From Escherichia coli (lineage in GTDB: Bacteria; Pseudomonadota; Gammaproteobacteria; Enterobacterales; Enterobacteriaceae): 64,000 nt of DNA. Where the stretch lies: assembly GCF_002854065.1 (NCBI RefSeq), contig NZ_CP024147.1. One strand, 5' to 3'. Below are positions 5,168 through 35,268 of the stretch, one piece after another. The notes under the pieces are model-generated. The model did no database searches, had not been told where the DNA came from, and saw only the letters and a list, made by a program, of their open reading frames with translations. The position numbers were made by a program, and so were the translations under genes. Numbering within the stretch: the stretch's first letter is position 1; every line of letters begins with the position of its first letter.

Positions 5168-6265
5168 TCAGGCGCTTTGTGCGAGAGCAAGTTCCTCATC
5201 TCGGGTTTCGATACGCTCGTCGCCGTTATACAGCCGCGCATGTTGCAGACCAACGAATAAACGCTCGCCACGCTGCGGGGCATCGTCGCCATGCATCACG
5301 ACCGTCAGCGGTTCGTTGTACCACCCCAGCGGCTGCACCACTAATTGGGTGTAGTGACCTTTCGGGCTGGCTTCCAGTACCTGTACCGGCAGCGGCGAAT
5401 CGAGGCTGGTACGGCGGCTGATATCCACTTCCCACGGGCGCAGGAAGAGATCCACCGGCCCCTGATACGCAGGTGTGTAGCCCAGCGGCCAGCGATGTGC
5501 GCCAACATGGAACTGCCCGCCGCGAATGGTTCCCTGCAGGCGGTTCACTTCGCCCATAAATTCGAGCACAAAACGGGTCGCCGGTTCGCGCCATACCTGA
5601 TCCGGCGCGTCAGCCTGTTCAATATTGCCCTGGCTCATCACAACTACACGATCAGCTACTTCGGTCGCTTCTTCCTGATCGTGGGTCACAAAAACGCTGG
5701 TGAATTTTAGTTCTTCATGGAGTTGACGCAGCCAGCGACGCAGCTCTTTACGCACCTGCGCATCCAACGCGCCAAACGGTTCATCAAGCAGCAGAATTTG
5801 CGGTTCTACAGCAAGCGCACGCGCCAGCGCTACACGCTGTTTCTGGCCGCCGGAAAGCTGCGCCGGATAACGATCCGCCAGATGGGCAAGCTGGACCATT
5901 TCCAGCAATTTTGTCACTTTCGCTTTGATCGCCGCGGCATTCGGGCGCTCGCGACGCGGCAGCACCGTCAGGCCAAAAGCGATATTGTCGAATACCGTCA
6001 TATGGCGGAACAGCGCGTAATGCTGGAACACGAAACCGACTTTACGGTCGCGCGCATGCAGGCGGCTGACGTCGGTACCGTGGAAACGGATATGCCCGCT
6101 GGTTTGATGCTCCAGCCCGGCGATAATCCGCAGCAGCGTGGTTTTCCCGGAGCCGGAGGGCCCCAGCAACGCGACCATCTGACCAGAAGGAATATCCAGT
6201 GAGATATCGTTCAGCACCTGGGTGCGACCAAAAGACTTCTTAATATTGGCAATCTCAATGCTCAT
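5168..6265 (-). CDS. cysA: Sulfate/thiosulfate ABC transporter ATP-binding protein
   Basis: 365-aa ORF with Walker [10 protein letters not shown] and ABC signature LSGGQKQR. Confidence 0.95.
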
Positions 6266-7130
6266 GATGCTCCTCCTGCTGCGCGCGTTTTTCCTGATTC
6301 TCCAGACGCCACTGCAACATACTCTTTAAAAACAGGGTGATAATCGCCATCAGCGTCAACAGCGCGGCGGCGGTAAAGGAGCCGACGGTGTTGTAGTCCT
6401 GCTCCAGCAATTCAATCTGTAACGGCAGCGAAAGTGTTTCGCCACGAATCGAGCCGGAAACCACCGACACCGCGCCAAACTCGCCAATCGCGCGGGCGTT
6501 GGTCAGCACCACGCCGTAAAGCAGCGCCCAGCGAATATTCGGTAATGTAACGCGACGGAACATCTGCCAGCCAGACGCGCCAAGCAAAATCGCCGCTTCG
6601 TCTTCCTGGCTGCCCTGGCTTAACATCACCGGCACCAGCTCGCGCACCACAAACGGACACGTCACAAAGATGGTGACCAGCACCATTCCCGGCCAGGAGA
6701 ACATGATTTGCAGATTATGTTCATCCAGCCAGCCGCCCAGCGGGCCGTTAGAGCCGTAGAACAGCAGATACACCAGACCGGCAACCACCGGCGATACGGC
6801 AAACGGAATGTCCAGTAGCGTCAGCAGTAACTGGCGTCCGGGGAAGTTAAAGCGCGTCACCAGCCAGGCCAGCAGAATGCCGAACACCAGGTTCACCGGT
6901 ACGGCAATCAGCGCAATCATCACCGTCAGCCAAATCGCGTGCAACATGTCCGGATCGGCCAGATTCTGTAAAACCGGCATCAGCCCCTTGCTGAATGCCT
7001 GCACGAAGATGTAAATCATCGGCACCAGCAGGATGAACGCCGAAACCAGCATCCCGATGCCAATCAGAAACCATTTGCCCCAGTTAATCGGGCGCGCGTC
7101 ATAACGCTTCAATTGGGTAACTTCCGCCAT
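6255..7130 (-). CDS. cysW: Sulfate/thiosulfate ABC transporter permease
   Basis: 291-aa polytopic membrane ORF overlapping cysA start, typical cysUWA arrangement. Confidence 0.95.
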
Positions 7131-7963
7131 TAATGACCTACCACACGCCGACCAAAGCGACTTTGCAGAGTGTTAATTGAGAACAGCAGCAGCAGAGATG
7201 CCGCGAGGATCACCGAAGCAATCGCGCTCGCCGCCGGGTAATCAAACTCCTGCAAGCGCACAAAAATCATCAGCGACGTCACTTCCGTCTTCCAGGCGAT
7301 GTTCCCGGCGATAAATATCACCGCGCCAAACTCACCAAGACTACGGGTAAACGACAGCGCCACGCCCGCCACCAGCGCCGGAGAAAGCTCCGGCAGCACC
7401 ACTTTGCAGAAACTTTGCCAGCGCGTTGCGCCAAGCGTTTCTGCCGCTTCTTCATATTCCGGGCCCAACTCTTCCAGCACCGGCTGCACGGTACGCACCA
7501 CAAACGGGATGCTGGTAAAGGCCATCGCCACCGCGATCCCAAGCCAGGTGTAGGTGACTTTGATATCAAACTTCGCCAGCCATTCACCGTAAAAACCGTT
7601 CACGGAAAAGAGCGAGGCCAGCGTTAAACCGGCGACTGCCGTTGGCAGCGCAAAGGGTAAATCCATCAGCGCATCAAGCAGCGTGCGGCCCGGAAAGCGA
7701 TAGCGGGTTAAGATCCACGCCATCAGCAGACCGAAAACGCCGTTAAAAATTGATGCCACAAACGCCGACAGCAGCGTCACTTTGTAGGCCGCGACCACCT
7801 GCGGGTTGGTGATCACCTCCCAGTACTGCGCCCAGCTCATCTCAGAGAGTTGCATAACCAGCGCAGAGAGCGGTAGCAGCAAAATCAGGCACACAAACAG
7901 CAGACTGGTGCCGAGGCTTAAGGTAAAGCCCGGCAGCACGCGTCTTGATGAAACTGCAAACAT
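7130..7963 (-). CDS. cysU: Sulfate/thiosulfate ABC transporter permease
   Basis: 277-aa membrane ORF, stop overlaps cysW start. Confidence 0.95.
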   Translation of the reverse strand: MFAVSSRRVLPGFTLSLGTSLLFVCLILLLPLSALVMQLSEMSWAQYWEVITNPQVVAAYKVTLLSAFVASIFNGVFGLLMAWILTRYRFPGRTLLDALMDLPFALPTAVAGLTLASLFSVNGFYGEWLAKFDIKVTYTWLGIAVAMAFTSIPFVVRTVQPVLEELGPEYEEAAETLGATRWQSFCKVVLPELSPALVAGVALSFTRSLGEFGAVIFIAGNIAWKTEVTSLMIFVRLQEFDYPAASAIASVILAASLLLLFSINTLQSRFGRRVVGH

Positions 7964-23986: not shown

Positions 23987-25192
23987 TTGAGCAAGACACC
24001 ACTCACAGCAAAGGCCATCGCAGCCGCGCAGCCAAAAGACAAGCCCTATAAACTCACCGATTCACTGACGCCAGGACTGTTTTTGCTGGTGCATCCCAAC
24101 GGCAGCAAATACTGGCGATTCAGGTATTGGTTGAATAAACGAGAGTTTTTGCAGGCCATTGGTGTTTACCCGCTAATCACACTCAAAGAAGCACGCAGAC
24201 GCGCCACAGAGAGCCGATCTCTGATTGCTAATGGAATTAATCCAGTGGAAGAAGCACGCAAGGAAAAAGCCATTGATGCGCTCAACATGGCGGCAGGTTT
24301 TAAGACGGTAGCGGAGGACTGGCTGGCTACCAGGGTCAGCGGGTGGTCAGAGTCCTACACGAAACAGGTTAGATCGGCACTGGAAAAAGATGTTTACCCC
24401 GTGCTGGGGAAGCGGTCAATTGTCGATATAACGGCCCGTGACGTGCTGGAATTGCTTCAGAAGAAAGAGCGTACCGCACCGGAACAAGCCAGGAAGCTAC
24501 GCCAGCGTATCGGGGAGATCTTCAAATTTGCCGTTATCACCGAACTGGTGGCAAGAAATCCGGTTGCAGATCTGAACACAGCACTAAAAGCCCGCCGTCC
24601 GGGCCACAACGCATGGCTGCAAATTAACGAAATTCAGGCGTTCTATGAAGCACTTGAGAGAGCCGGGAGCGTCCAGATTCAGACGGCAATACGTTTGCTC
24701 ATATTGAGCGCTCTAAGGACGGTGGAACTGCGTAAAATGCGCTGGGAATGGGTTAACCTGGAAGACGCGATCATCACCCTACCCGCTGAAGTCATGAAGG
24801 CCCGTCGCCCGCATGTGGTCCCGCTATCACGGCAGGCGGTAGAGCTATTGCAGGACCAGTTTACTCGCACCGGATACAGCGCTTTCGTCTTCCCTGGTCG
24901 ATTCATGGATAAGCCCTTGTCTGCCAGCGCGATACTGAAAGCCCTGGAGCGTATCGGATACAAGTCGATAGCCACAGCACACGGCTGGCGTACAACGTTC
25001 AGCACGACGCTTAACGAGTCCGGCAGGTACTCACCAGACTGGATTGAAATCCAATTGGCCCACGTCCCGAAGGGTGTACGCGGTGTATATAACCAGGCGG
25101 CCTATCTCAAACAGCGCCGTCAAATGCTTCAGGACTACGCCGACGCCATTGATTCAATACTGGCTGGTGAAGGTAATCCGCTGGAACCGTGA
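23987..25192 (+). CDS. intZ: P4-type tyrosine integrase of a prophage remnant (TTG start)
   Basis: 401-aa ORF with N-terminal P4-integrase arm motif (KLTDSLTPGLFLLVHPNGSKYWRFRYW) and C-terminal tyrosine-recombinase core; K-12 has intZ next to eutB. Confidence 0.8.
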   Translation: MSKTPLTAKAIAAAQPKDKPYKLTDSLTPGLFLLVHPNGSKYWRFRYWLNKREFLQAIGVYPLITLKEARRRATESRSLIANGINPVEEARKEKAIDALNMAAGFKTVAEDWLATRVSGWSESYTKQVRSALEKDVYPVLGKRSIVDITARDVLELLQKKERTAPEQARKLRQRIGEIFKFAVITELVARNPVADLNTALKARRPGHNAWLQINEIQAFYEALERAGSVQIQTAIRLLILSALRTVELRKMRWEWVNLEDAIITLPAEVMKARRPHVVPLSRQAVELLQDQFTRTGYSAFVFPGRFMDKPLSASAILKALERIGYKSIATAHGWRTTFSTTLNESGRYSPDWIEIQLAHVPKGVRGVYNQAAYLKQRRQMLQDYADAIDSILAGEGNPLEP

Positions 25193-25224: not shown

Positions 25225-25418
25225 CGCTAATTATTCCACTATTCCAATTAAGTGGAATAAATTATTCAATATCAAAAACTTACATCAATATTGCAACAAT
25301 AAAAACGGTGGCTTATGATCAGATCATGATTTTCGGTATGTGAACAGCAAAAACAAGAAGCCCGGAAAGGCGGCAACCAATCCGGGCGATATGGGAAAAG
25401 AGATTAGGAGGTTTCCCC

Positions 25419-26186
25419 ATGCGTAATAGTTTAGCAGTTCGCTTTAGCTTGCAGCAAGGCGAAGAATTATCACAGGAATATCAATTCATCAAATACGAAG
25501 AAGCGCCGGAACAGGTGCAAATAGCTTTTGATGATCAGCACTACGGCAACACTATCCGCTACGACGGTAAAAAATGGTTTCTCAATCCGGTAACAAATGC
25601 CATTCACGTATGTCAAATCATTACGCCAGTAAATAACAGCGCGGATAACGATTCGGCTATTGACGCTGAACTGGTGACAGAACCACTACCGCCACCGCCG
25701 CCAGTACAAGAAAGCGATGTAAAACCCGACGCCATCGATCTGACAGCAGAAGCCAGAGAGCGCAAACAACCGAAGCCGGAACAACCGCAAGCCAAGGATA
25801 ACAAACAGTGGCACGGTAACACGGCGTATCTGAATACGTTTGCTTGTCATCTTCATGAAGTGCTACCACAGGCCATCTATAGCACATGGTGCGACAAACA
25901 AACGGCGGCACACTTCCACCTGCTTTACGCGCTTTGCTACCTGGCAAGCTACGAAAACAAAGATGAAGGTATCGAGCTTGGCGAGGTGTTATATGGTGCT
26001 GAAAAGATCACAAAGGGCGGCGTAGTACCTGGTTTCCATATGGCCCGATCAACGTTCGATATCAAGATTAACGAGCTTGAACAGTGGGGATTAATCAAGG
26101 TAACACGAGGTAAGAAACGTAAGGACGGGCAAGGCAACTTGCCGAACAGTATCAAACTGAACTTTAAGCCGTACAGTTTAAAATAA
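25419..26186 (+). CDS. Hypothetical prophage protein, possibly a winged-helix replication-initiator-like protein
   Basis: 255-aa ORF behind a strong SD (aggagg); proline/acidic linker then a basic C-terminal segment (ELEQWGLIKVTRGKKRKDG) resembling winged-helix initiators; weak inference. Confidence 0.55.
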   Translation: MRNSLAVRFSLQQGEELSQEYQFIKYEEAPEQVQIAFDDQHYGNTIRYDGKKWFLNPVTNAIHVCQIITPVNNSADNDSAIDAELVTEPLPPPPPVQESDVKPDAIDLTAEARERKQPKPEQPQAKDNKQWHGNTAYLNTFACHLHEVLPQAIYSTWCDKQTAAHFHLLYALCYLASYENKDEGIELGEVLYGAEKITKGGVVPGFHMARSTFDIKINELEQWGLIKVTRGKKRKDGQGNLPNSIKLNFKPYSLK

Positions 26187-26194
26187 TCACACTA

Positions 26195-26220
26195 GGCGGG
26201 CAATGTTCCCGCCTTTTCTT
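26195..26220 (+). terminator. Rho-independent terminator after the 255-aa ORF
   Basis: Stem ggcggg / cccgcc with 7-nt loop followed by ttttctt. Confidence 0.5.
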
Positions 26221-26243
26221 TGCCTCAATCCTATAAAATTCAC

Positions 26244-26282
26244 ATCCCGAAAATCGGTATCTGGGTATCCCGAAAATCGGTA
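26244..26282. repeat. Two perfect 16-bp direct repeats ATCCCGAAAATCGGTA with 23-bp period
   Basis: Copies at 26244-26259 and 26267-26282, immediately followed by an AT-rich tract. Confidence 0.7.
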
Positions 26283-27668
26283 AGTAATAATAAGTATTAT
26301 CCTTAAAGGTAAAAACCATATAAGTAAGATCTATCTCTTCAAGAATGTATATATTCACTACGTTCATATATACATGAGAAGTTTCCCTTTCATGCAGTCA
26401 AAACTACATTCATCAGCATCGCTTTCTGCGCTCTCCTTCCCAGCAAGCTGGAAAGGCCCATTCACTCACGCACAACCTGCAAACCAGACCAACATACCAT
26501 CATGGCGATTCGTTCATGGGTAGCGCGGGTATATCTCAAAGGGTGATTTCTTCTTGGTGGACCTTCGGAAGACTTCGAGCAATCGCCAGCTCAAAAGACG
26601 GTCTGGCAGTGATGGTTATCATCGACAGCATTGAGCGCTACCGCGCCAACTTACAGCAGCAGGATAACTACCGAAGGAAAACCCACGCCGAAAGGGATTG
26701 ACTCACTGCAAAGCCAATGGGTTTTATCAGCGTATACAGACCAGACAGGAAACAGCAGCAAAGCAGCGTATAGCCAGGTGCAGACAGTACCATCACACAA
26801 CGCACAGCAGGCTGAGGTGAACACTCAAACAGGTTTATCCCCGCAGCCGACCAACGCAAACCATCCTGACCGTGCCAAATTCGAACGGAATGGTGCCTGT
26901 AACGCGATGAACACATATAACCGCTTACTTGCTTACCTGAAAACTTCACGTCGCCACAGAGCGATTTAGACGCATTATAATTGATGCGATTTCATTAAAT
27001 TTTCACCAGACACCGGAACAACGCCGATTAATCCAGGAATGGATTCATCGACATGCGCCGCTTTCCCCGCAGAACAGTCTCGCCTGAATAGTCTCACCAA
27101 CCAGATTTCAGATTGTCCAATCAGGCACGTCTCATTAAACGACAGAATGCGGCCTACAACGCCATCGCTGCCGATCTCGTTTGAGCAAGGTGCTGAGACT
27201 GAATGACGGACGCCCACTCCTCAGAGCTGAGGAATCGCCACACAGAACGCTGAGATCTGATATTACCGCCGCACCATTCCACGCCAGACGAATCAATCTA
27301 ATCACACCTGAGCAAATGCATTGCCAAAAATTAAGGCCGTCAGAATGCGTTATATTGCGTTTAAACGGCATCTAATTTTAATTAGTTTTGATGTGGTGAT
27401 TGCAGGCAAAAAAAATCCCGCCGGAGAGAGCGGGGAAGTGAAATCAATCGTTGTAGTTATAGATCACATTTTGAGTAAGGGTTACCAGCCCTTGAGTAAT
27501 ATTATCCCTGTATTACGTGAGATGCGCAATTATTTTTTGCTAATTAAAAGTTTTGTAAACATTACAGAATATCCCCTTTCCCTATATGGTAAAAGATGTG
27601 AAACAGGGACATGAGGAATATAATATTAAGTATCAACAGTAATGTTGGTCTTTAATTTCATTCAGGGC

Positions 27669-27710
27669 GCGGTGAGGGTTTTCCCATATTTTTCCTCACC
27701 GCTACTTTTT
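27669..27710 (+). terminator. Terminator/attenuator-like hairpin in the leader of the AlpA-like gene
   Basis: Perfect 9-bp stem gcggtgagg (27669-27677) / cctcaccgc (27694-27702), 16-nt loop, T5 run at 27706-27710. Confidence 0.4.
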
Positions 27711-27721
27711 GAGGTGAGAAC

Positions 27722-27913
27722 ATGAATGATAGCGAATTAATGACGGTGAGCGAGGTAGCCGCTTTATTCGGCGTTACCCGACGCACTATATTCCGCTGGC
27801 TGAACAAGATTAAAGGTTGGCCCGTTCCGGTTACTCCGGTCGGTGCACGAATTAAGTTTATCCGATCTGAGATTTTGGAATTCTATAAAAACAAAGGCGC
27901 TCGCCACCAATGA
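27722..27913 (+). CDS. AlpA/excisionase-family helix-turn-helix prophage regulator
   Basis: 63-aa ORF MNDSELMTVSEVAALFGVTRRTIFRWLNK; HTH typical of prophage AlpA/Xis-type regulators; SD gaggtga 6 nt upstream. Confidence 0.7.
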   Translation: MNDSELMTVSEVAALFGVTRRTIFRWLNKIKGWPVPVTPVGARIKFIRSEILEFYKNKGARHQ

Positions 27914-29859: not shown

Positions 29860-32040
29860 ATGAGTGGAAATCTCGGGACCATATACTACGAGGTCGATGC
29901 CCGCACTGGGAAACTTCTTATCGCGCAACAGCAGGCGGAAGAGGCGTTCGATCGCATTGAACGAGGAGCGCGGAAGGCTGATAGCGGCGTCAAAAAGTTA
30001 AATACGCAGATGACTAAAACATCAGCCGCAGTCAAAACCAACCTTTCCCCGGCAATCCGTAACGCATCATACCAGATCGCAGACCTTGCCACTCAATTGC
30101 AGATGGGCGGTAATGCGCTTCAGGCGTTCGCTGTGCAGGGTGCGCAGTTATTAGCTGGCTTTGGCACGATGGGCGCGGTAGCTGGCGCGGTGCTGGCTAT
30201 CGCTGGCGCTATGGGTGGAAGCCTGGCACAAGGCGCTGATAGTGCAGCCGGATCGGTTGAGTATCTGGACAAGGCGATCACCAAACTGAACGAGGTCATA
30301 GCTGTAAATGAACAGGGCGTGACGGTGATGAGTGATAGTTACGCCAGACTTTCTAAGGTTAACGCTGAAGTAGCGAAACAGATGCGGAACATGGCTGAAA
30401 TTCAGGCAATTGCAGCACTGCGTGACCTGAAAGAACAGGCAAGCCAGGCACAGGGGGAAATGTCGTCATTCTGGCGCAGCTTGCAGGGTGGTAAAGCTGA
30501 CGCAGCAGCAGCAGCACAGGCACTTGATGATCTTGGAATCACAACCAACGACTACAAAGAGGCGATAGCCATACTGAACGCCAATCAGCCGGATACACAG
30601 GCGCAAATGGCAACGCTAGCCAAATCCGTGATGTATGTTGGAGAGCAATATGATCTGACCAACCAGCAAGCATACGAATTTATACGCGCACTAAATAAGG
30701 CCGCGACAACGAAAACGCCGGAAGCCATGCAGGAGCTATCTGGCTTCATGCAGGTTTTGCTTCAGGATACCGAAAACGGTAACGAGGCATTCCGTGAACT
30801 GGCTATCAAATTCGTCGATGCACAAACCAAAGGCGCAATGTTGGAGGACCAACTAAACCGACTGAAAGGCGCTATTAGTGACGCAGCCACAGAAGCCAGA
30901 AACGCAAACTTTACCACTATGCTCAACACCGTCGCCGCACGCCTGGCAACCATTGAGCAAGGTTGGGAGGCAGGCGTTAGGATGCAGATGAAAGCCCAGG
31001 GCTACACTGAAGAGCAGATCGATGAATATGTGAACATGGAAACGGCGTACCGTGATGCAAAAGCCGCTTTGGACGAGAAGAACAAGGCCGACCGTGAAGC
31101 TATTGCGCTATCCAAACGCCAGGCCGCAGAAGCAGCCCGCAAGGCAAAACAGGAAGAAGCTGAAGCACAACGCAAGGCCAAACAGTTAGCCGCGCAGAAG
31201 GAGCAGGCAGGACGCTTTACGCAGCAAGTAATGACGGAATACCTGACGACCGTAGATCCGGCAACAGGCAAGGCGTTTAACCCTGCCGCACAAGTAGAAA
31301 TGCAGGAGCAGCAGAAGAAAGCGGCGCTGGATAAATACAGACAGTTGGGCGTCCTGGATGAACAGCAGTACCAGAACACGCTAACCGCCATCCAGAAAAC
31401 CGCGTCAATGCGCCGCCAGCAAATCATCAAAGACGAGGCCGACACGTTATTCAACAATCAGCAACAGTTGATCGGCACATTTGGCGATTTCTTCGGTGAA
31501 CTGTCTGGAGTCATAGCAGACGGTGCAGGTGAGCAAAACGCGGCATATCAAGCGCTATTTGCTGTGCAGAAGGGTTTTGTATTGGCATCAGCAGCTTTAA
31601 GCCTTCAGAAAGCGCTTGCTGAGGCAAACGCCTTGCCTTTCCCGGCTAATCTTCCGGCCTATGCGCAAGCTATGTCAGCAGGTACGCAGATCATTTCAGC
31701 TATTCGTGGAATAGCTTTCGGTGGCGGACGCTACAACGGCGGCGCGGTTGGTGCTGGCAACCTGTACCGCGTGGGTGAACACGGTAAGCCTGAGATATTC
31801 AAGGCGAACAATGGCAGCCAGTACATGATCCCAGGTGATAACGGTCGCGTGATAAGTAATCGTGACATTGGCGGCGGTGGCGGCGTAACAATCAACAGCC
31901 CGATCACCATTAACACTACGAATGGCTTCAGTGATGAAGACTCAAGGCGTCTTGAGGAAGCGATGAAGCGCGTAGCTATGGGCGTTTGCAGGCAGGAGTC
32001 AACCAGACCGGGAGGAATGTTAGCCCCGCGCCGTCGTTAA
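29860..32040 (+). CDS. Phage tail tape-measure-like protein
   Basis: 726-aa Ala/Gln-rich mostly helical ORF with glycine-rich hydrophobic N-terminal segment, long coiled-coil region (AEAARKAKQEEAEAQRKAKQLAAQKEQ) and C-terminal Gly-rich motif GGGRYNGGAVGAGNLYRVGEHG resembling the lambda gpH C-terminus as recalled. Confidence 0.65.
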   Translation: MSGNLGTIYYEVDARTGKLLIAQQQAEEAFDRIERGARKADSGVKKLNTQMTKTSAAVKTNLSPAIRNASYQIADLATQLQMGGNALQAFAVQGAQLLAGFGTMGAVAGAVLAIAGAMGGSLAQGADSAAGSVEYLDKAITKLNEVIAVNEQGVTVMSDSYARLSKVNAEVAKQMRNMAEIQAIAALRDLKEQASQAQGEMSSFWRSLQGGKADAAAAAQALDDLGITTNDYKEAIAILNANQPDTQAQMATLAKSVMYVGEQYDLTNQQAYEFIRALNKAATTKTPEAMQELSGFMQVLLQDTENGNEAFRELAIKFVDAQTKGAMLEDQLNRLKGAISDAATEARNANFTTMLNTVAARLATIEQGWEAGVRMQMKAQGYTEEQIDEYVNMETAYRDAKAALDEKNKADREAIALSKRQAAEAARKAKQEEAEAQRKAKQLAAQKEQAGRFTQQVMTEYLTTVDPATGKAFNPAAQVEMQEQQKKAALDKYRQLGVLDEQQYQNTLTAIQKTASMRRQQIIKDEADTLFNNQQQLIGTFGDFFGELSGVIADGAGEQNAAYQALFAVQKGFVLASAALSLQKALAEANALPFPANLPAYAQAMSAGTQIISAIRGIAFGGGRYNGGAVGAGNLYRVGEHGKPEIFKANNGSQYMIPGDNGRVISNRDIGGGGGVTINSPITINTTNGFSDEDSRRLEEAMKRVAMGVCRQESTRPGGMLAPRRR

Positions 32041-32163: not shown

Positions 32164-32667
32164 TTATTGATAGTGTTTTATGTTCAGATAATGCCCGATG
32201 ACTTTGTCATGCAGCTCCACCGATTTTGAGAACGACAGCGACTTCCGTCCCAGCCGTGCCAGGTGCTGCCTCAGATTCAGGTTATGCCGCTCAATTCGCT
32301 GCGTATATCGCTTGCTGATTACGTGCAGCTTTCCCTTCAGGCGGGATTCATACAGCGGCCAGCCATCCGTCATCCATATCACCACGTCAAAGGGTGACAG
32401 CAGGCTCATAAGACGCCCCAGCGTCGCCATAGTGCGTTCACCGAATACGTGCGCAACAACCGTCTTCCGGAGACTGTCATACGCGTAAAACAGCCAGCGC
32501 TGGCGCGATTTAGCCCCGACGTATCCCCACTGTTCGTCCATTTCCGCGCAGACGATGACGTCACTGCCCGGCTGTATGCGCGAGGTTACCGACTGCGGCC
32601 TGAGTTTTTTAAATGGCGGAAAATCGTGTTGAGGCCAACGCCCATAATGCGGGCGGTTGCCCGGCAT
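32164..32667 (-). CDS. insB: IS1 InsB reading frame (expressed as InsAB transposase by -1 frameshift)
   Basis: 167-aa ORF overlapping the insA 3-prime end in the -1 frame, classic IS1 organisation. Confidence 0.85.
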
Positions 32668-32861
32668 CCAACGCCATTCATGGCCATATCAATGATTTTC
32701 TGGTGCGTACCGGGTTGAGAAGCGGTGTAAGTGAACTGCAGTTGCCATGTTTTACGGCAGTGAGAGCAGAGATAGCGCTGATGTCCGGCAGTGCTTTTGC
32801 CGTTACGCACCACCCCGTCAGTAGCTGAACAGGAGGGACAGCTGATAGAAACAGAAGCCAC
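32586..32861 (-). CDS. insA: IS1 InsA protein
   Basis: 91-aa [46 protein letters not shown] with zinc-finger cysteines. Confidence 0.9.
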
Positions 32862-32988: not shown

Positions 32989-35268
32989 TTACAGCGGTTG
33001 GGTTTGCGCTTCAACCACGGCCAGCGCCACCATGTTGACGATACGACGTACCGATGCGATCGGCGTTAACACGTGAACCGGTTTCGCCACGCCCATCAGC
33101 ACCGGACCGACAGTCACACCTTCCGAGCTGGAAACGCGCAGTAAGTTGTAACTAATGCGGGCAGCTTCCATGTTTGGCATTACCAGAATATTGGCAGAAC
33201 CTTTCAAAGGGCTGTCCGGCATACGGTCGTTGCGAATCGCTTCCACCAGCGCTGCATCGCCGTGCATTTCACCATCAATCATCAGTTCTGGCGCACGTTC
33301 CCTGACCAGTTCCAGCGCCTGACGCATTTTGCTCGACGACGGACAGTCAGAAGAACCAAAGTTGGAGTGCGACAACAGAGCAACGCGCGGCTCAATACCA
33401 AAACGACGGACAGTTTCTGCCGCCATCAAGGTGATCTCCGCCAGCTCTTCTGCGTCTGGTTCGTCATTGACGTAGGTATCGGCAATAAAGGTGTTACCAC
33501 TCGGCAGCAGCAGCGCGTTCATTGCACCTGCGGTGTGAACGCCATCGCGATAACCAAAGACATTTTTCACCACGCTAAAATGTTCATGATAATCACCCAC
33601 CGTACCGCAAATCATTGCATCGGCTTCGCCACGCTGAACCATGATCGCGCCGATCACTGTCGGGTTACTGATCAACGCCCGCTGCGCCTGTTCCTGAGTG
33701 ACGCCGCGACGCTTCATGATCTGGAAGTATTCGGTCCAGTACTCTTTAAAGCGCGGATCGGATTCGTTATTGACGATCTCAAAATCAACGCCCGCTTTGA
33801 TCTGCAAGCCCAGTTTCTGAATGCGCATTTCGATCACGTTCGGACGACCGATAAGGATCGGTTTCGCCAGTCCCAGCGTTACCAGTTCCTGAGTGGCATG
33901 TAGAACGCGCGCCTCTTCCCCTTCCGGCAGAACTACGCGCTTCGGCGCTTTGCGAGCCTGGGAGAAAATCGGCTTCATAAACAGGTTGGTTTTGTAAACG
34001 AACTCAGTCAGCTTGTCGATGTAGACGTCGAAATCAGCAATCGGACGCGTCGCCACGCCCGACTCCATCGCCGCTTTCGCGACCGCAGGAGCGATCTTAA
34101 CGATCAAGCGCGGATCAAACGGTTTTGGAATGATGTATTCCGGACCAAAGCTCAGATCCTGATCGCCATACGCTGAAGCCACCACTTCGCTCTGTTCCGC
34201 ATGGGCCAGTTCTGCAATCGCGCGTACCGCCGCCAGTTTCATCTCTTCGTTGATGGCGGTTGCGCCAACGTCCAGCGCGCCACGGAAGATGAACGGGAAG
34301 CAAAGGACGTTGTTGACCTGGTTTGGATAGTCAGAACGACCGGTGCAGATGATGGCATCCGGACGCACTTCTTTCGCCAGCGGCGGCAGAATTTCCGGTT
34401 CCGGGTTCGCCAGCGCCAGGATCATTGGCGCTCGAGCCATTTTCTTCACCATTTCCTGGGTCAGCACTTTCGGGCCGGAACAGCCGAGGAAAATATCCGC
34501 GCCTTCAATCACATCATCGAGGGTACGTTTGCCGTCATCCACTACCGCATATGCGGCTTTGGTTTCCGCCATGTTTGGCTCACGGCCCTGATAGATAACG
34601 CCTTTTGAATCGCAAACCACGATGTTATGTTTTTGCAGACCCAGCGCGACCAGCAGGTTCATACAGGCGATTGCTGCAGCACCCGCGCCGGAAACCACCA
34701 TACGCACGTCAGAGATGTTTTTCTCCACCACGCGCAAGCCGTTGAGGATGGCGGCAGTGCTGATGATTGCCGTGCCGTGCTGATCGTCGTGGAATACCGG
34801 AATATTCATCCGCTCGCGCAGTTTCTGTTCAATATAGAAACATTCTGGCGCTTTAATGTCTTCGAGGTTGATTCCGCCGAAGGTCGGTTCGAGCGCAGCG
34901 ACGACTTCAATAAATTTGTCCGGGTCGAGTTCATCAACTTCAATGTCAAATACATCAATCCCGGCGAATTTCTTAAACAGAACGCCCTTGCCTTCCATCA
35001 CCGGTTTGCCTGCCAGCGCGCCAATGTTGCCTAACCCCAGCACCGCCGTACCGTTAGAGATCACCGCCACCAGGTTACCGCGCGCGGTATATTTGTAGGC
35101 TTTTAACGGGTCTTTTTCGATTTCAAGACAAGGTGCGGCAACGCCTGGTGAGTAGGCCAGCGCCAGATCGCGCTGCGTTGCCAGAGGCTTGGTTGGAGAA
35201 ACCTGGATTTTCCCTGGAACTGGAAATTCATGGAAATCAAGTGCACTTTGTTTTAACTGGTCATCCAT
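32989..35268 (-). CDS. maeB: NADP-dependent malic enzyme
   Basis: 759-aa ORF with N-terminal malic enzyme domain and C-terminal phosphotransacetylase-like domain. Confidence 0.95.

Follow-up and report, generated by a model that had tools for sequence, protein, structure and literature searches.

Winged-helix proteins with class-matched site arrays in CPZ-55-like elements of Escherichia coli: a tentative initiator and origin

Two direct repeats behind a small gene of an integrative element in the Escherichia coli chromosome raise the question of which protein they serve, and whether gene and repeats together form a replication initiator with its origin. The window—the whole 64-kb stretch of E. 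coli chromosome analysed here—carries this element between eutB and an IS1 copy beside maeB. The element is a relative of the K-12 cryptic prophage CPZ-55, usually regarded as an inert remnant, and the open reading frame (ORF) of 255 amino acids (aa) that follows its integrase gene intZ is related to yffL, a K-12 gene still without an assigned function to our knowledge. An earlier note, made from the sequence alone, had likened the ORF, a terminator hairpin, two 16-bp repeats and an AT-rich stretch to a Rep gene with iterons and an unwinding element. Comparison of related loci indicates that the 255-aa protein very probably binds the repeats as one half of a cognate protein/site module. That the two represent an origin and initiator of the lambda-O or iteron kind is our preferred but tentative reading, one that we believe only slightly less readily than we doubt it.

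The ORF begins with ATG, 9 nt downstream of an AGGAGG Shine-Dalgarno sequence, and the same coding sequence (CDS) is labelled “hypothetical protein” by the Prokaryotic Genome Annotation Pipeline in an identical strain; the query region is 100% identical in strains CUWW06 and 100416. Its terminator (Table 1) has the stem AGGCGGG/CCCGCCT at 26194-26214, followed by TTTTCTTT, and an RNA fold of -12.3 kcal/mol (z = -3.0). The 16-mer ATCCCGAAAATCGGTA then occurs in two perfect copies, 23 bp apart from start to start, each containing the pseudo-palindromic core CCGA-AAA-TCGG (4+3+4). ORF, hairpin and repeats are all present where the earlier note had placed them. Taken from the window by itself the repeat pair has weak significance, with 8 of 100 shuffles reaching at least two matches at three or fewer mismatches, and comparative evidence from related loci is what argues that the repeats are not a chance product.

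A search for additional copies found none in 26190-26500, where the earlier note had proposed to look, and one clear inverted copy upstream of the ORF, TCACATACCGAAAATCATGATCTG, which has one intact half-site. Over 25 nt this copy is 84% complementary to 26239-26263. The 24-nt pattern TCACATNCCGAAAATCNNNATCTG (TCACAT-N-CCGAAAATC-NNN-ATCTG) is found at two places in the 64 kb with none expected: at the first downstream copy (26240) and, inverted, at 25320-25343. We estimate the chance of such a promoter-proximal match at about 4e-7. Only one promoter-like site precedes the ORF; the upstream copy starts one base past its predicted -10 hexamer and spans the expected transcription start, a position at which bound protein would block transcription of its own gene; class-B relatives (L003; classes defined below) have TTGCAA-17-TATAAT at the same promoter position.

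Related loci were gathered by exact-protein look-ups and by a metagenome scan for the conserved terminator 22-mer, which as a search key retrieved 17 metagenome loci; 22 distinct loci were obtained. Three classes can be told apart in their sites, A with CCGAAAATCGG, B with GTAAAAATTAC and K with GTCAAAAGTTGCC, and likewise in the helix-turn-helix (HTH) and recognition region of the protein: FHMARSTFDIKINELEQ in class A, F(K/S)LSRKT(F/L)DAKINDLEA in class B and RLSKNTVKKCLDRLV in class K. Site class and recognition-region class agree in 22/22 loci, and the arrays contain no cross-class sites. Arrays comprise 2-5 sites, mostly at a spacing of 23 bp (22-24), or of about 45 bp where a degenerate copy intervenes, and the centre of the first site lies at +57 to +69 from the terminator start in all loci. 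Copy number differs even among near-identical class-A elements, two of which (L012, L027) have three copies rather than two. In L027 (reverse strand, about 50-110 after the terminator), whose contig ends before the cognate protein, two of the three copies have the perfect palindromic core CCGAAATTCGG. A class-matched copy in the promoter region accompanies classes A and B and most class-K loci; it is missing from the K-12 subtype (K-12 and four further loci). In K-12 the same terminator follows yffL, and then come four tandem copies of GGTGGGTCAAAAGTTGCCG rather than the 16-mer of the window.

Class A and B proteins are 87-89% identical overall, and their substitutions cluster in residues 194-219 (9/26 positions, against 19/229 elsewhere; Fisher p = 6e-4), with the differences at 208, 212, 216 and 219 lying on one face of the predicted recognition helix. 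The half-sites change symmetrically, from CCGA/TCGG to GTAA/TTAC, which points to binding by a dimer. The integrase is 90-97% identical over all classes, and the HTH_17 protein encoded further downstream hardly differs in its HTH stretch between classes A and B; as neither covaries with the sites, neither can be the specificity determinant. We also considered the repeats as arm sites of the integrase and rejected this: the integrase shows no covariation and the repeats lie about 2.3 kb from the eutB-side end.

What kind of protein recognises these sites? By sequence comparison the 255-aa protein is a true but distant homologue of K-12 YffL (b2443): their C-terminal 130 aa align at 28% identity (E 9e-11), and the motifs W-x-GN-x-x-YL-x-T, EVLP, ALCY and C-terminal FKPY are conserved. 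The two share their architecture, the position of the gene after intZ and the terminator; they differ in the N-terminal region, the recognition helix and the repeat sequence, and K-12 has no class-matched promoter site, so that autoregulation may have been lost in the K-12 subtype with its different upstream region. The annotated 213-aa start of K-12 yffL (L002 3758-4399) is probably too far upstream, as relatives start at MSDMLAVEQ behind AAAGGAG and are about 172-175 aa long. No match to the 255-aa protein was found in Pfam (even at E<=10), NCBIfam, PHROGs, PADLOC or PDB sequences; phmmer against 1.84 billion representative proteins returned the protein itself and two fragments, nothing else, and word-indexed protein searches returned E. 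coli proteins of the two subfamilies and no others. No nucleoside triphosphatase (NTPase) or primase domain was detected in it.

An AlphaFold2 (AF2) model of the C-terminal 132 aa (predicted local distance difference test 79, predicted template modelling score 0.77) shows a canonical winged helix, of topology H1-S1-H2-H3-S2-wing-S3, behind three to four helices; it is the single such domain predicted. In the full-length model, residues 1-68 are beta-rich with low confidence, about 68-132 form a disordered Pro-rich linker, and 133-250 hold the helical extension and winged helix, with the recognition helix predicted at about 210-222 and a basic wing at 226-247. The earlier note's suggestion of a basic, winged-helix-like C-terminus is borne out here, its basic RGKKRKDGQGN stretch being the loop of the predicted wing hairpin, and we regard it as established by the model that the C-terminal half is a winged helix. 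Descent from initiators, or a specific similarity to them, is not established. Foldseek gave no significant match in the PDB; against AFDB50 it gave weak matches (E 0.01-0.2), many labelled “helix-turn-helix domain-containing” or uncharacterized, whose functionally named members are mostly replication proteins (DnaD, Replication protein, RepA, ORC1-type). The winged helix scores nearly as well against CodY, CRP, Fur and PerR. In profile comparison (hhalign), A3 aligned with an 11-sequence alignment of lambda O N-termini with the winged helices in register (Prob 32%, P 4.7e-4), and the regulator AsnC, run as a control, reached P 2e-4; RepE gave P 0.6 and MarR nothing. As the AsnC control is equally good, we take the lambda O signal as generic winged-helix similarity. 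Of the likeness to winged-helix initiators for which the earlier note had proposed a profile comparison, the winged helix stands, and a homology specific to initiators is not established. A small-terminase (TerS) or pac role for the protein was likewise rejected: it matches no TerS family, and K-12 has a separate TerS-like gene.

Directly after the array the AT-rich stretch of the earlier note is present and exceptional in both composition and stability. It is 75.5% AT against a window mean of 47.7%, and 0.2% of 98-nt segments over the 64 kb are as AT-rich; the 60-mer from 26280 is the second least stable duplex of the window (-63.9 kcal/mol; mean -87.3 +/- 5.5 kcal/mol). The tract contains TAAGTA repeats and is not conserved in sequence from one class to another. 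Within it lies a perfect inverted repeat of 10 bp, ATGTATATAT-N11-ATATATACAT (26345-26354 / 26366-26375), which is present in class A and in L004/L005, not in L003 or K-12.

The non-coding block beyond the tract (about 4672-4870 in L002) lies 233-315 nt after the terminator in every class, and from class to class its conserved part changes less than do the gene, the sites and the spacer. Alignment shows that 1-nt insertions and deletions are tolerated, so the block is not coding. RNAalifold gave no convincing RNA structure, with unremarkable z-scores, and Rfam gave a single sub-threshold GcvB match, located elsewhere. No match of the block to phages was found, and the idea of a phage cos or pac site is accordingly unsupported. 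The constant linkage of array and block in every class suggests that they act together, and the block is possibly part of the same cis-acting unit.

Table 1. Features of the element and its right flank (window coordinates).
Feature	Position	Strand	Remarks
Integrase gene intZ	23987-25192		P4-type tyrosine integrase; from annotation
Predicted sigma-70 promoter of the winged-helix gene	25291-25319	+	TTGCAA-17 nt-TATGAT
Promoter-proximal repeat copy	25320-25343	-	One intact half-site; putative autoregulatory operator
Winged-helix protein gene, distant yffL homologue	25419-26186	+	255 aa, ATG start
Intrinsic terminator of the winged-helix gene	26194-26221	+	Nearly invariant in all related loci
Array of two candidate cognate sites	26240-26282	+	16-mers at 26244-26259 and 26267-26282
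AT-rich, easily melted tract	26283-26380		Candidate unwinding element or promoter region
Non-coding block	26425-26620		First ~150 nt conserved in all loci
Tape-measure homologue	29860-32040		PHROG 1538, E 7e-103
IS1 copy	32164-32861		Truncates the tape-measure gene, abuts maeB (maeB flank 32989-35268)

Comparative or sequence evidence gives us the sites, their covariation with the protein, the location of the promoter copy and the winged-helix fold; beyond this we infer DNA binding, binding as a dimer, autorepression, origin function and replisome recruitment in the following scheme. The 255-aa protein would be a sequence-specific winged-helix DNA-binding protein that sits as a dimer on the pseudo-palindromic core. 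At the weak site abutting its own -10 hexamer it would exert negative autoregulation; its second target would be the tandem array just past the terminator. Array, AT tract and perhaps the conserved block would constitute the vegetative origin of a CPZ-55-like integrative element, where distortion of the DNA by several array-bound dimers would lead to opening of the AT tract, and the conserved parts of the protein outside the winged helix would recruit the replisome of the host or of a helper phage. Recruitment from outside is proposed because helicase, primase and loader were not recognised in the element.

Several observations favour an origin. The very unstable AT tract lies directly after the array, array copy number varies, and the named structural neighbours are mostly replication proteins. 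The class-matched promoter site parallels the autoregulation of initiators. The element also has other candidates for a regulator, the HTH_17 AlpA/Xis-like protein and a YffS-like HTH protein (K-12 YffS has weak PHROG matches to transcriptional regulator/repressor families), and no replication candidate other than the 255-aa protein was found in it. At a second chromosomal site, next to ychJ/purU, the elements L007 (1-6355) and L015 (reverse strand, 5860-7530) carry the gene-array-block module at their right end, with the array facing chromosomal ychJ and no element gene downstream, an arrangement more in keeping with a cis-acting origin than with the operator of a rightward operon.

Other observations weigh against an origin. 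No sequence or profile link of the protein to initiator families was found in Pfam, NCBIfam, PHROGs or PDB, and its lambda O signal is generic. Helicase, primase and loader genes were not recognised in the window element, in its intact relative L010 or in K-12 CPZ-55, and the same three have no P-like or DnaC-like helicase loader beside the winged-helix gene; the annotation of L010 is without a capsid protein, large terminase, helicase or primase gene. No DnaA box TTATNCACA was found at one or no mismatch near the array in the window or K-12 (two other loci have isolated 1-mismatch matches), and integration host factor (IHF) sites or GATC clusters were found in no class. Some arrays have two sites only, K-12-class loci are only about 65% AT after the array, and lambda OR/OL-type operators are also tandem palindromic sites with a spacing of about 23 bp. 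CPZ-55 itself showed no activity as extrachromosomal circular DNA in a mobilome study (10.1101/2024.07.17.603846), and its excision is below 1e-5 per cell (PMC3105296). The reading of the earlier note is thus partly supported: repeats specific to the protein, a copy at its promoter and a meltable tract were found, and DnaA boxes, IHF sites, GATC clusters and replisome genes were not.

The functionally closest systems are lambda O with ori-lambda and the iteron replicons. Lambda O binds as a winged-helix dimer to several tandem, internally symmetric sites with an AT-rich region directly after them, and its DNA-binding domain and sites are exchanged among related elements as a type-specific cassette; the window locus likewise has symmetric tandem sites followed by an AT tract and a type-specific pairing of domain and sites. 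It differs in that the winged helix is C-terminal, the sites lie past the gene and its terminator instead of within the gene, their number is 2-5 rather than four, no P-like loader is encoded and there is no PF04492 (Phage_rep_O) match. Iteron plasmids (F RepE, pPS10 RepA, R6K pi, P1 RepA) have a period of about 22-23 bp beside an AT tract, a variable number of iterons and an extra partial site on the initiator's promoter for autorepression. The locus resembles Rep_3 plasmids in these respects: several direct repeats with a period of about 22 bp beside an AT-rich region are found here, as with Rep_3-type iterons of 17-22 bp, the AT-richness being weaker in the K-12 class. Unlike Rep_3 initiators (PF01051), the protein has one winged-helix domain rather than two and no match to the family, and there is no DnaA box; unlike the asymmetric iterons that bind monomers, the sites are pseudo-palindromes suited to dimers, and the element is integrated, not a plasmid.

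Staphylococcal pathogenicity islands (SaPI) and phage-inducible chromosomal islands (PICI) with a pri-rep-ori module are integrase-bearing and phage-related, and have an origin 3' of the specificity gene made of repeats and an AT tract; SaPI Rep is a helicase accompanied by a primase, and its specificity differs between islands. The window element is similarly an integrative island with an integrase and a candidate origin immediately 3' of the gene for the specificity protein. Compared with SaPI Rep, the protein has 255 aa and no detected NTPase domain, no primase was found, and the AT tract is flanked by repeats on one side only. We file the locus as an orphan winged-helix family with cognate site arrays. 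It is possible, but in our estimate rather doubtful, that YffL and the related 255-aa protein represent a new orphan family of minimal initiators of winged-helix type, dependent on host or helper, which together with their arrays make up a CPZ-55-like replicon.

The strongest alternative, which we consider a real possibility though somewhat improbable, is that the protein regulates transcription of the element, whether as an immunity-type repressor or as an activator, and that the array is a set of tandem operators for a promoter in the AT tract or block. Rightward transcription would then be controlled from the array, the promoter-proximal site would serve autoregulation, and the three classes would be immunity or specificity types. 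Covariation and dimer-type pseudo-palindromes fit a regulator equally well, and protein-site covariation in three classes, concordant in 22/22 loci, is a property shared with phage immunity modules. Lambda CI at OR1-3 and P2 C are autoregulated, act at 2-3 or more sites with a period of about 22-24 bp and show immunity-type covariation; the module has the period, the covariation and putatively the autoregulation in common with such repressors. More closely, 16-bp sites with 7-bp spacers and a 23-bp period resemble lambda OR1-3, and P2 C repressor binds direct repeats 22 bp apart. A site on the gene's own promoter fits as well, as do the fold scores of CodY, CRP, Fur and PerR, the hhalign result for AsnC (P 2e-4), the failure to find DnaA boxes and replisome genes, and a TATAAG -10-like hexamer about 45 bp past the last site in classes A and B.

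Against a regulator, no sigma-70-like promoter was predicted over the array or elsewhere on the + strand of 26187-27800, although weak or activated promoters escape consensus scans. Array and block are separated by a long spacer that is not conserved across the classes, and the distance to the next predicted gene is 0.3-1.5 kb. In contrast to phage repressors, the gene is co-directional with the array and a terminator lies in between, there are up to five copies, and the array can lie at the end of the element, as at the ychJ site, where it faces the chromosome junction with no element gene behind it. YffS-like and AlpA/Xis-like HTH proteins are already encoded, and, generic HTH or uncharacterized entries apart, most of the named AFDB neighbours are replication proteins and not transcription factors. 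Were the regulator reading correct, the module would be an immunity-like switch of the CPZ-55-like element family.

The array might also be a cis site for some other transaction of the same protein, centromere-like or pairing, pac-like, or for titration or handcuffing in copy-number control or in exclusion of related elements. We think this improbable. The element does resemble a phage satellite or defective prophage in having a tape-measure gene and, in K-12, the small-terminase-like YffO, and class-specific sites would also confer incompatibility or exclusion specificity; against this, the element yielded no partition ATPase or GTPase, the protein has no small-terminase family match while K-12 has its separate TerS-like gene, and no phage of the collections carries the array or the block. 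That the repeats are a chance or neutral tandem duplication beside an unrelated hypothetical gene, for which the shuffling of the window would speak, is hardly credible in view of three independent sequence classes at the same position, each with its matching protein class, class-matched promoter copies (that of the window at about 4e-7) and half-sites that change symmetrically.

The origin and initiator interpretation, if true, would make the CPZ-55 family small, mobile and possibly satellite-like replicons in which initiator/origin specificity is swapped as a cassette; the initiators would form a very small class unrelated in sequence to known Rep families, and CPZ-55-like elements would still be able to enter a phase of replication, perhaps aided by a helper phage. 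More generally, YffL-family proteins are predicted to bind the array downstream of their own gene and, in most subtypes, their own promoter, with specificity set by a handful of residues in one helix. Whether origin or regulator, classes A, B and K offer a compact natural system for the co-evolution of protein-DNA recognition. The literature checked states neither a function for YffL nor an origin in CPZ-55.

Of 5,426 complete E. coli genomes, 12 have class-A arrays and 237 have class-K arrays, the latter including many derivatives of K-12. A match to part of the query region was found in 370 genomes. Peptide-pattern scans of IMG/VR and GTDB representative genomes and tblastn against phage records found no relatives, and no phage collection contains an array or conserved block. 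In a search of IMG/VR for a helper phage, exact class A and K 16-mers gave single matches per contig, never in tandem, and for this reason look like chance. A tblastn search of plasmid records gave one match alone, a Klebsiella plasmid with the whole of CPZ-55. This copy (NZ_KY751926.1 87,700-93,100) is a complete K-12-type element, with int and yffL through yffS, between ISEc23 and the mph(A) region of a conjugative IncFIA/IncR plasmid of Klebsiella pneumoniae. CPZ-55-like elements thus occupy two places in the chromosome, eutA/eutB and the neighbourhood of ychJ/purU, and occur once on a plasmid. In L015 a remnant of the int 3' end precedes the module and a different int-AlpA pair lies at the left end; an extra 75-aa ORF stands between its winged-helix gene and the terminator.

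In the window, eutR-eutK-eutL-eutC-eutB lie on the minus strand up to 23799, and the position of the element beside eutB is that of CPZ-55 in K-12. Behind eutB come intZ, the 255-aa ORF, about 1.1 kb without an annotated gene and several small genes, among them those for the HTH_17 (AlpA/excisionase-like) protein and the tape-measure homologue. The intact relative L010 is about 10 kb long and lies between eutB and eutA. The gap of about 1.1 kb without an annotated CDS (26187-27344) contains ORFs that have no PHROG match. From about 26680 the window sequence diverges from most relatives, and about 425 bp more than in L010 precede the HTH_17 gene; the region appears to be a hot spot of variable insertions.

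The tape-measure homologue is the only tail or head gene found in the element. Interference of mobile elements with tail assembly is described in PMC11364771, and with this in mind the homologue may act on the tail of a helper phage. The window strain lacks the right-hand portion of the element and also the eut genes, from eutA to eutP at least, that relatives have between the element and maeB. As IS1 cuts the tape-measure gene and directly adjoins maeB, both were presumably lost by an IS1-mediated deletion.

A perfect 10-bp inverted repeat, TTATTCCACT-N10-AGTGGAATAA, lies at 25231-25260 (also L002 3703-3732), after the int terminator and before the winged-helix gene's promoter, within the fourth least stable 60-mer of the window. 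It has one mismatch in K-12 and L015, ACTAGT-type palindromes take its place in L003-L007, and it is possibly a site for another regulator.

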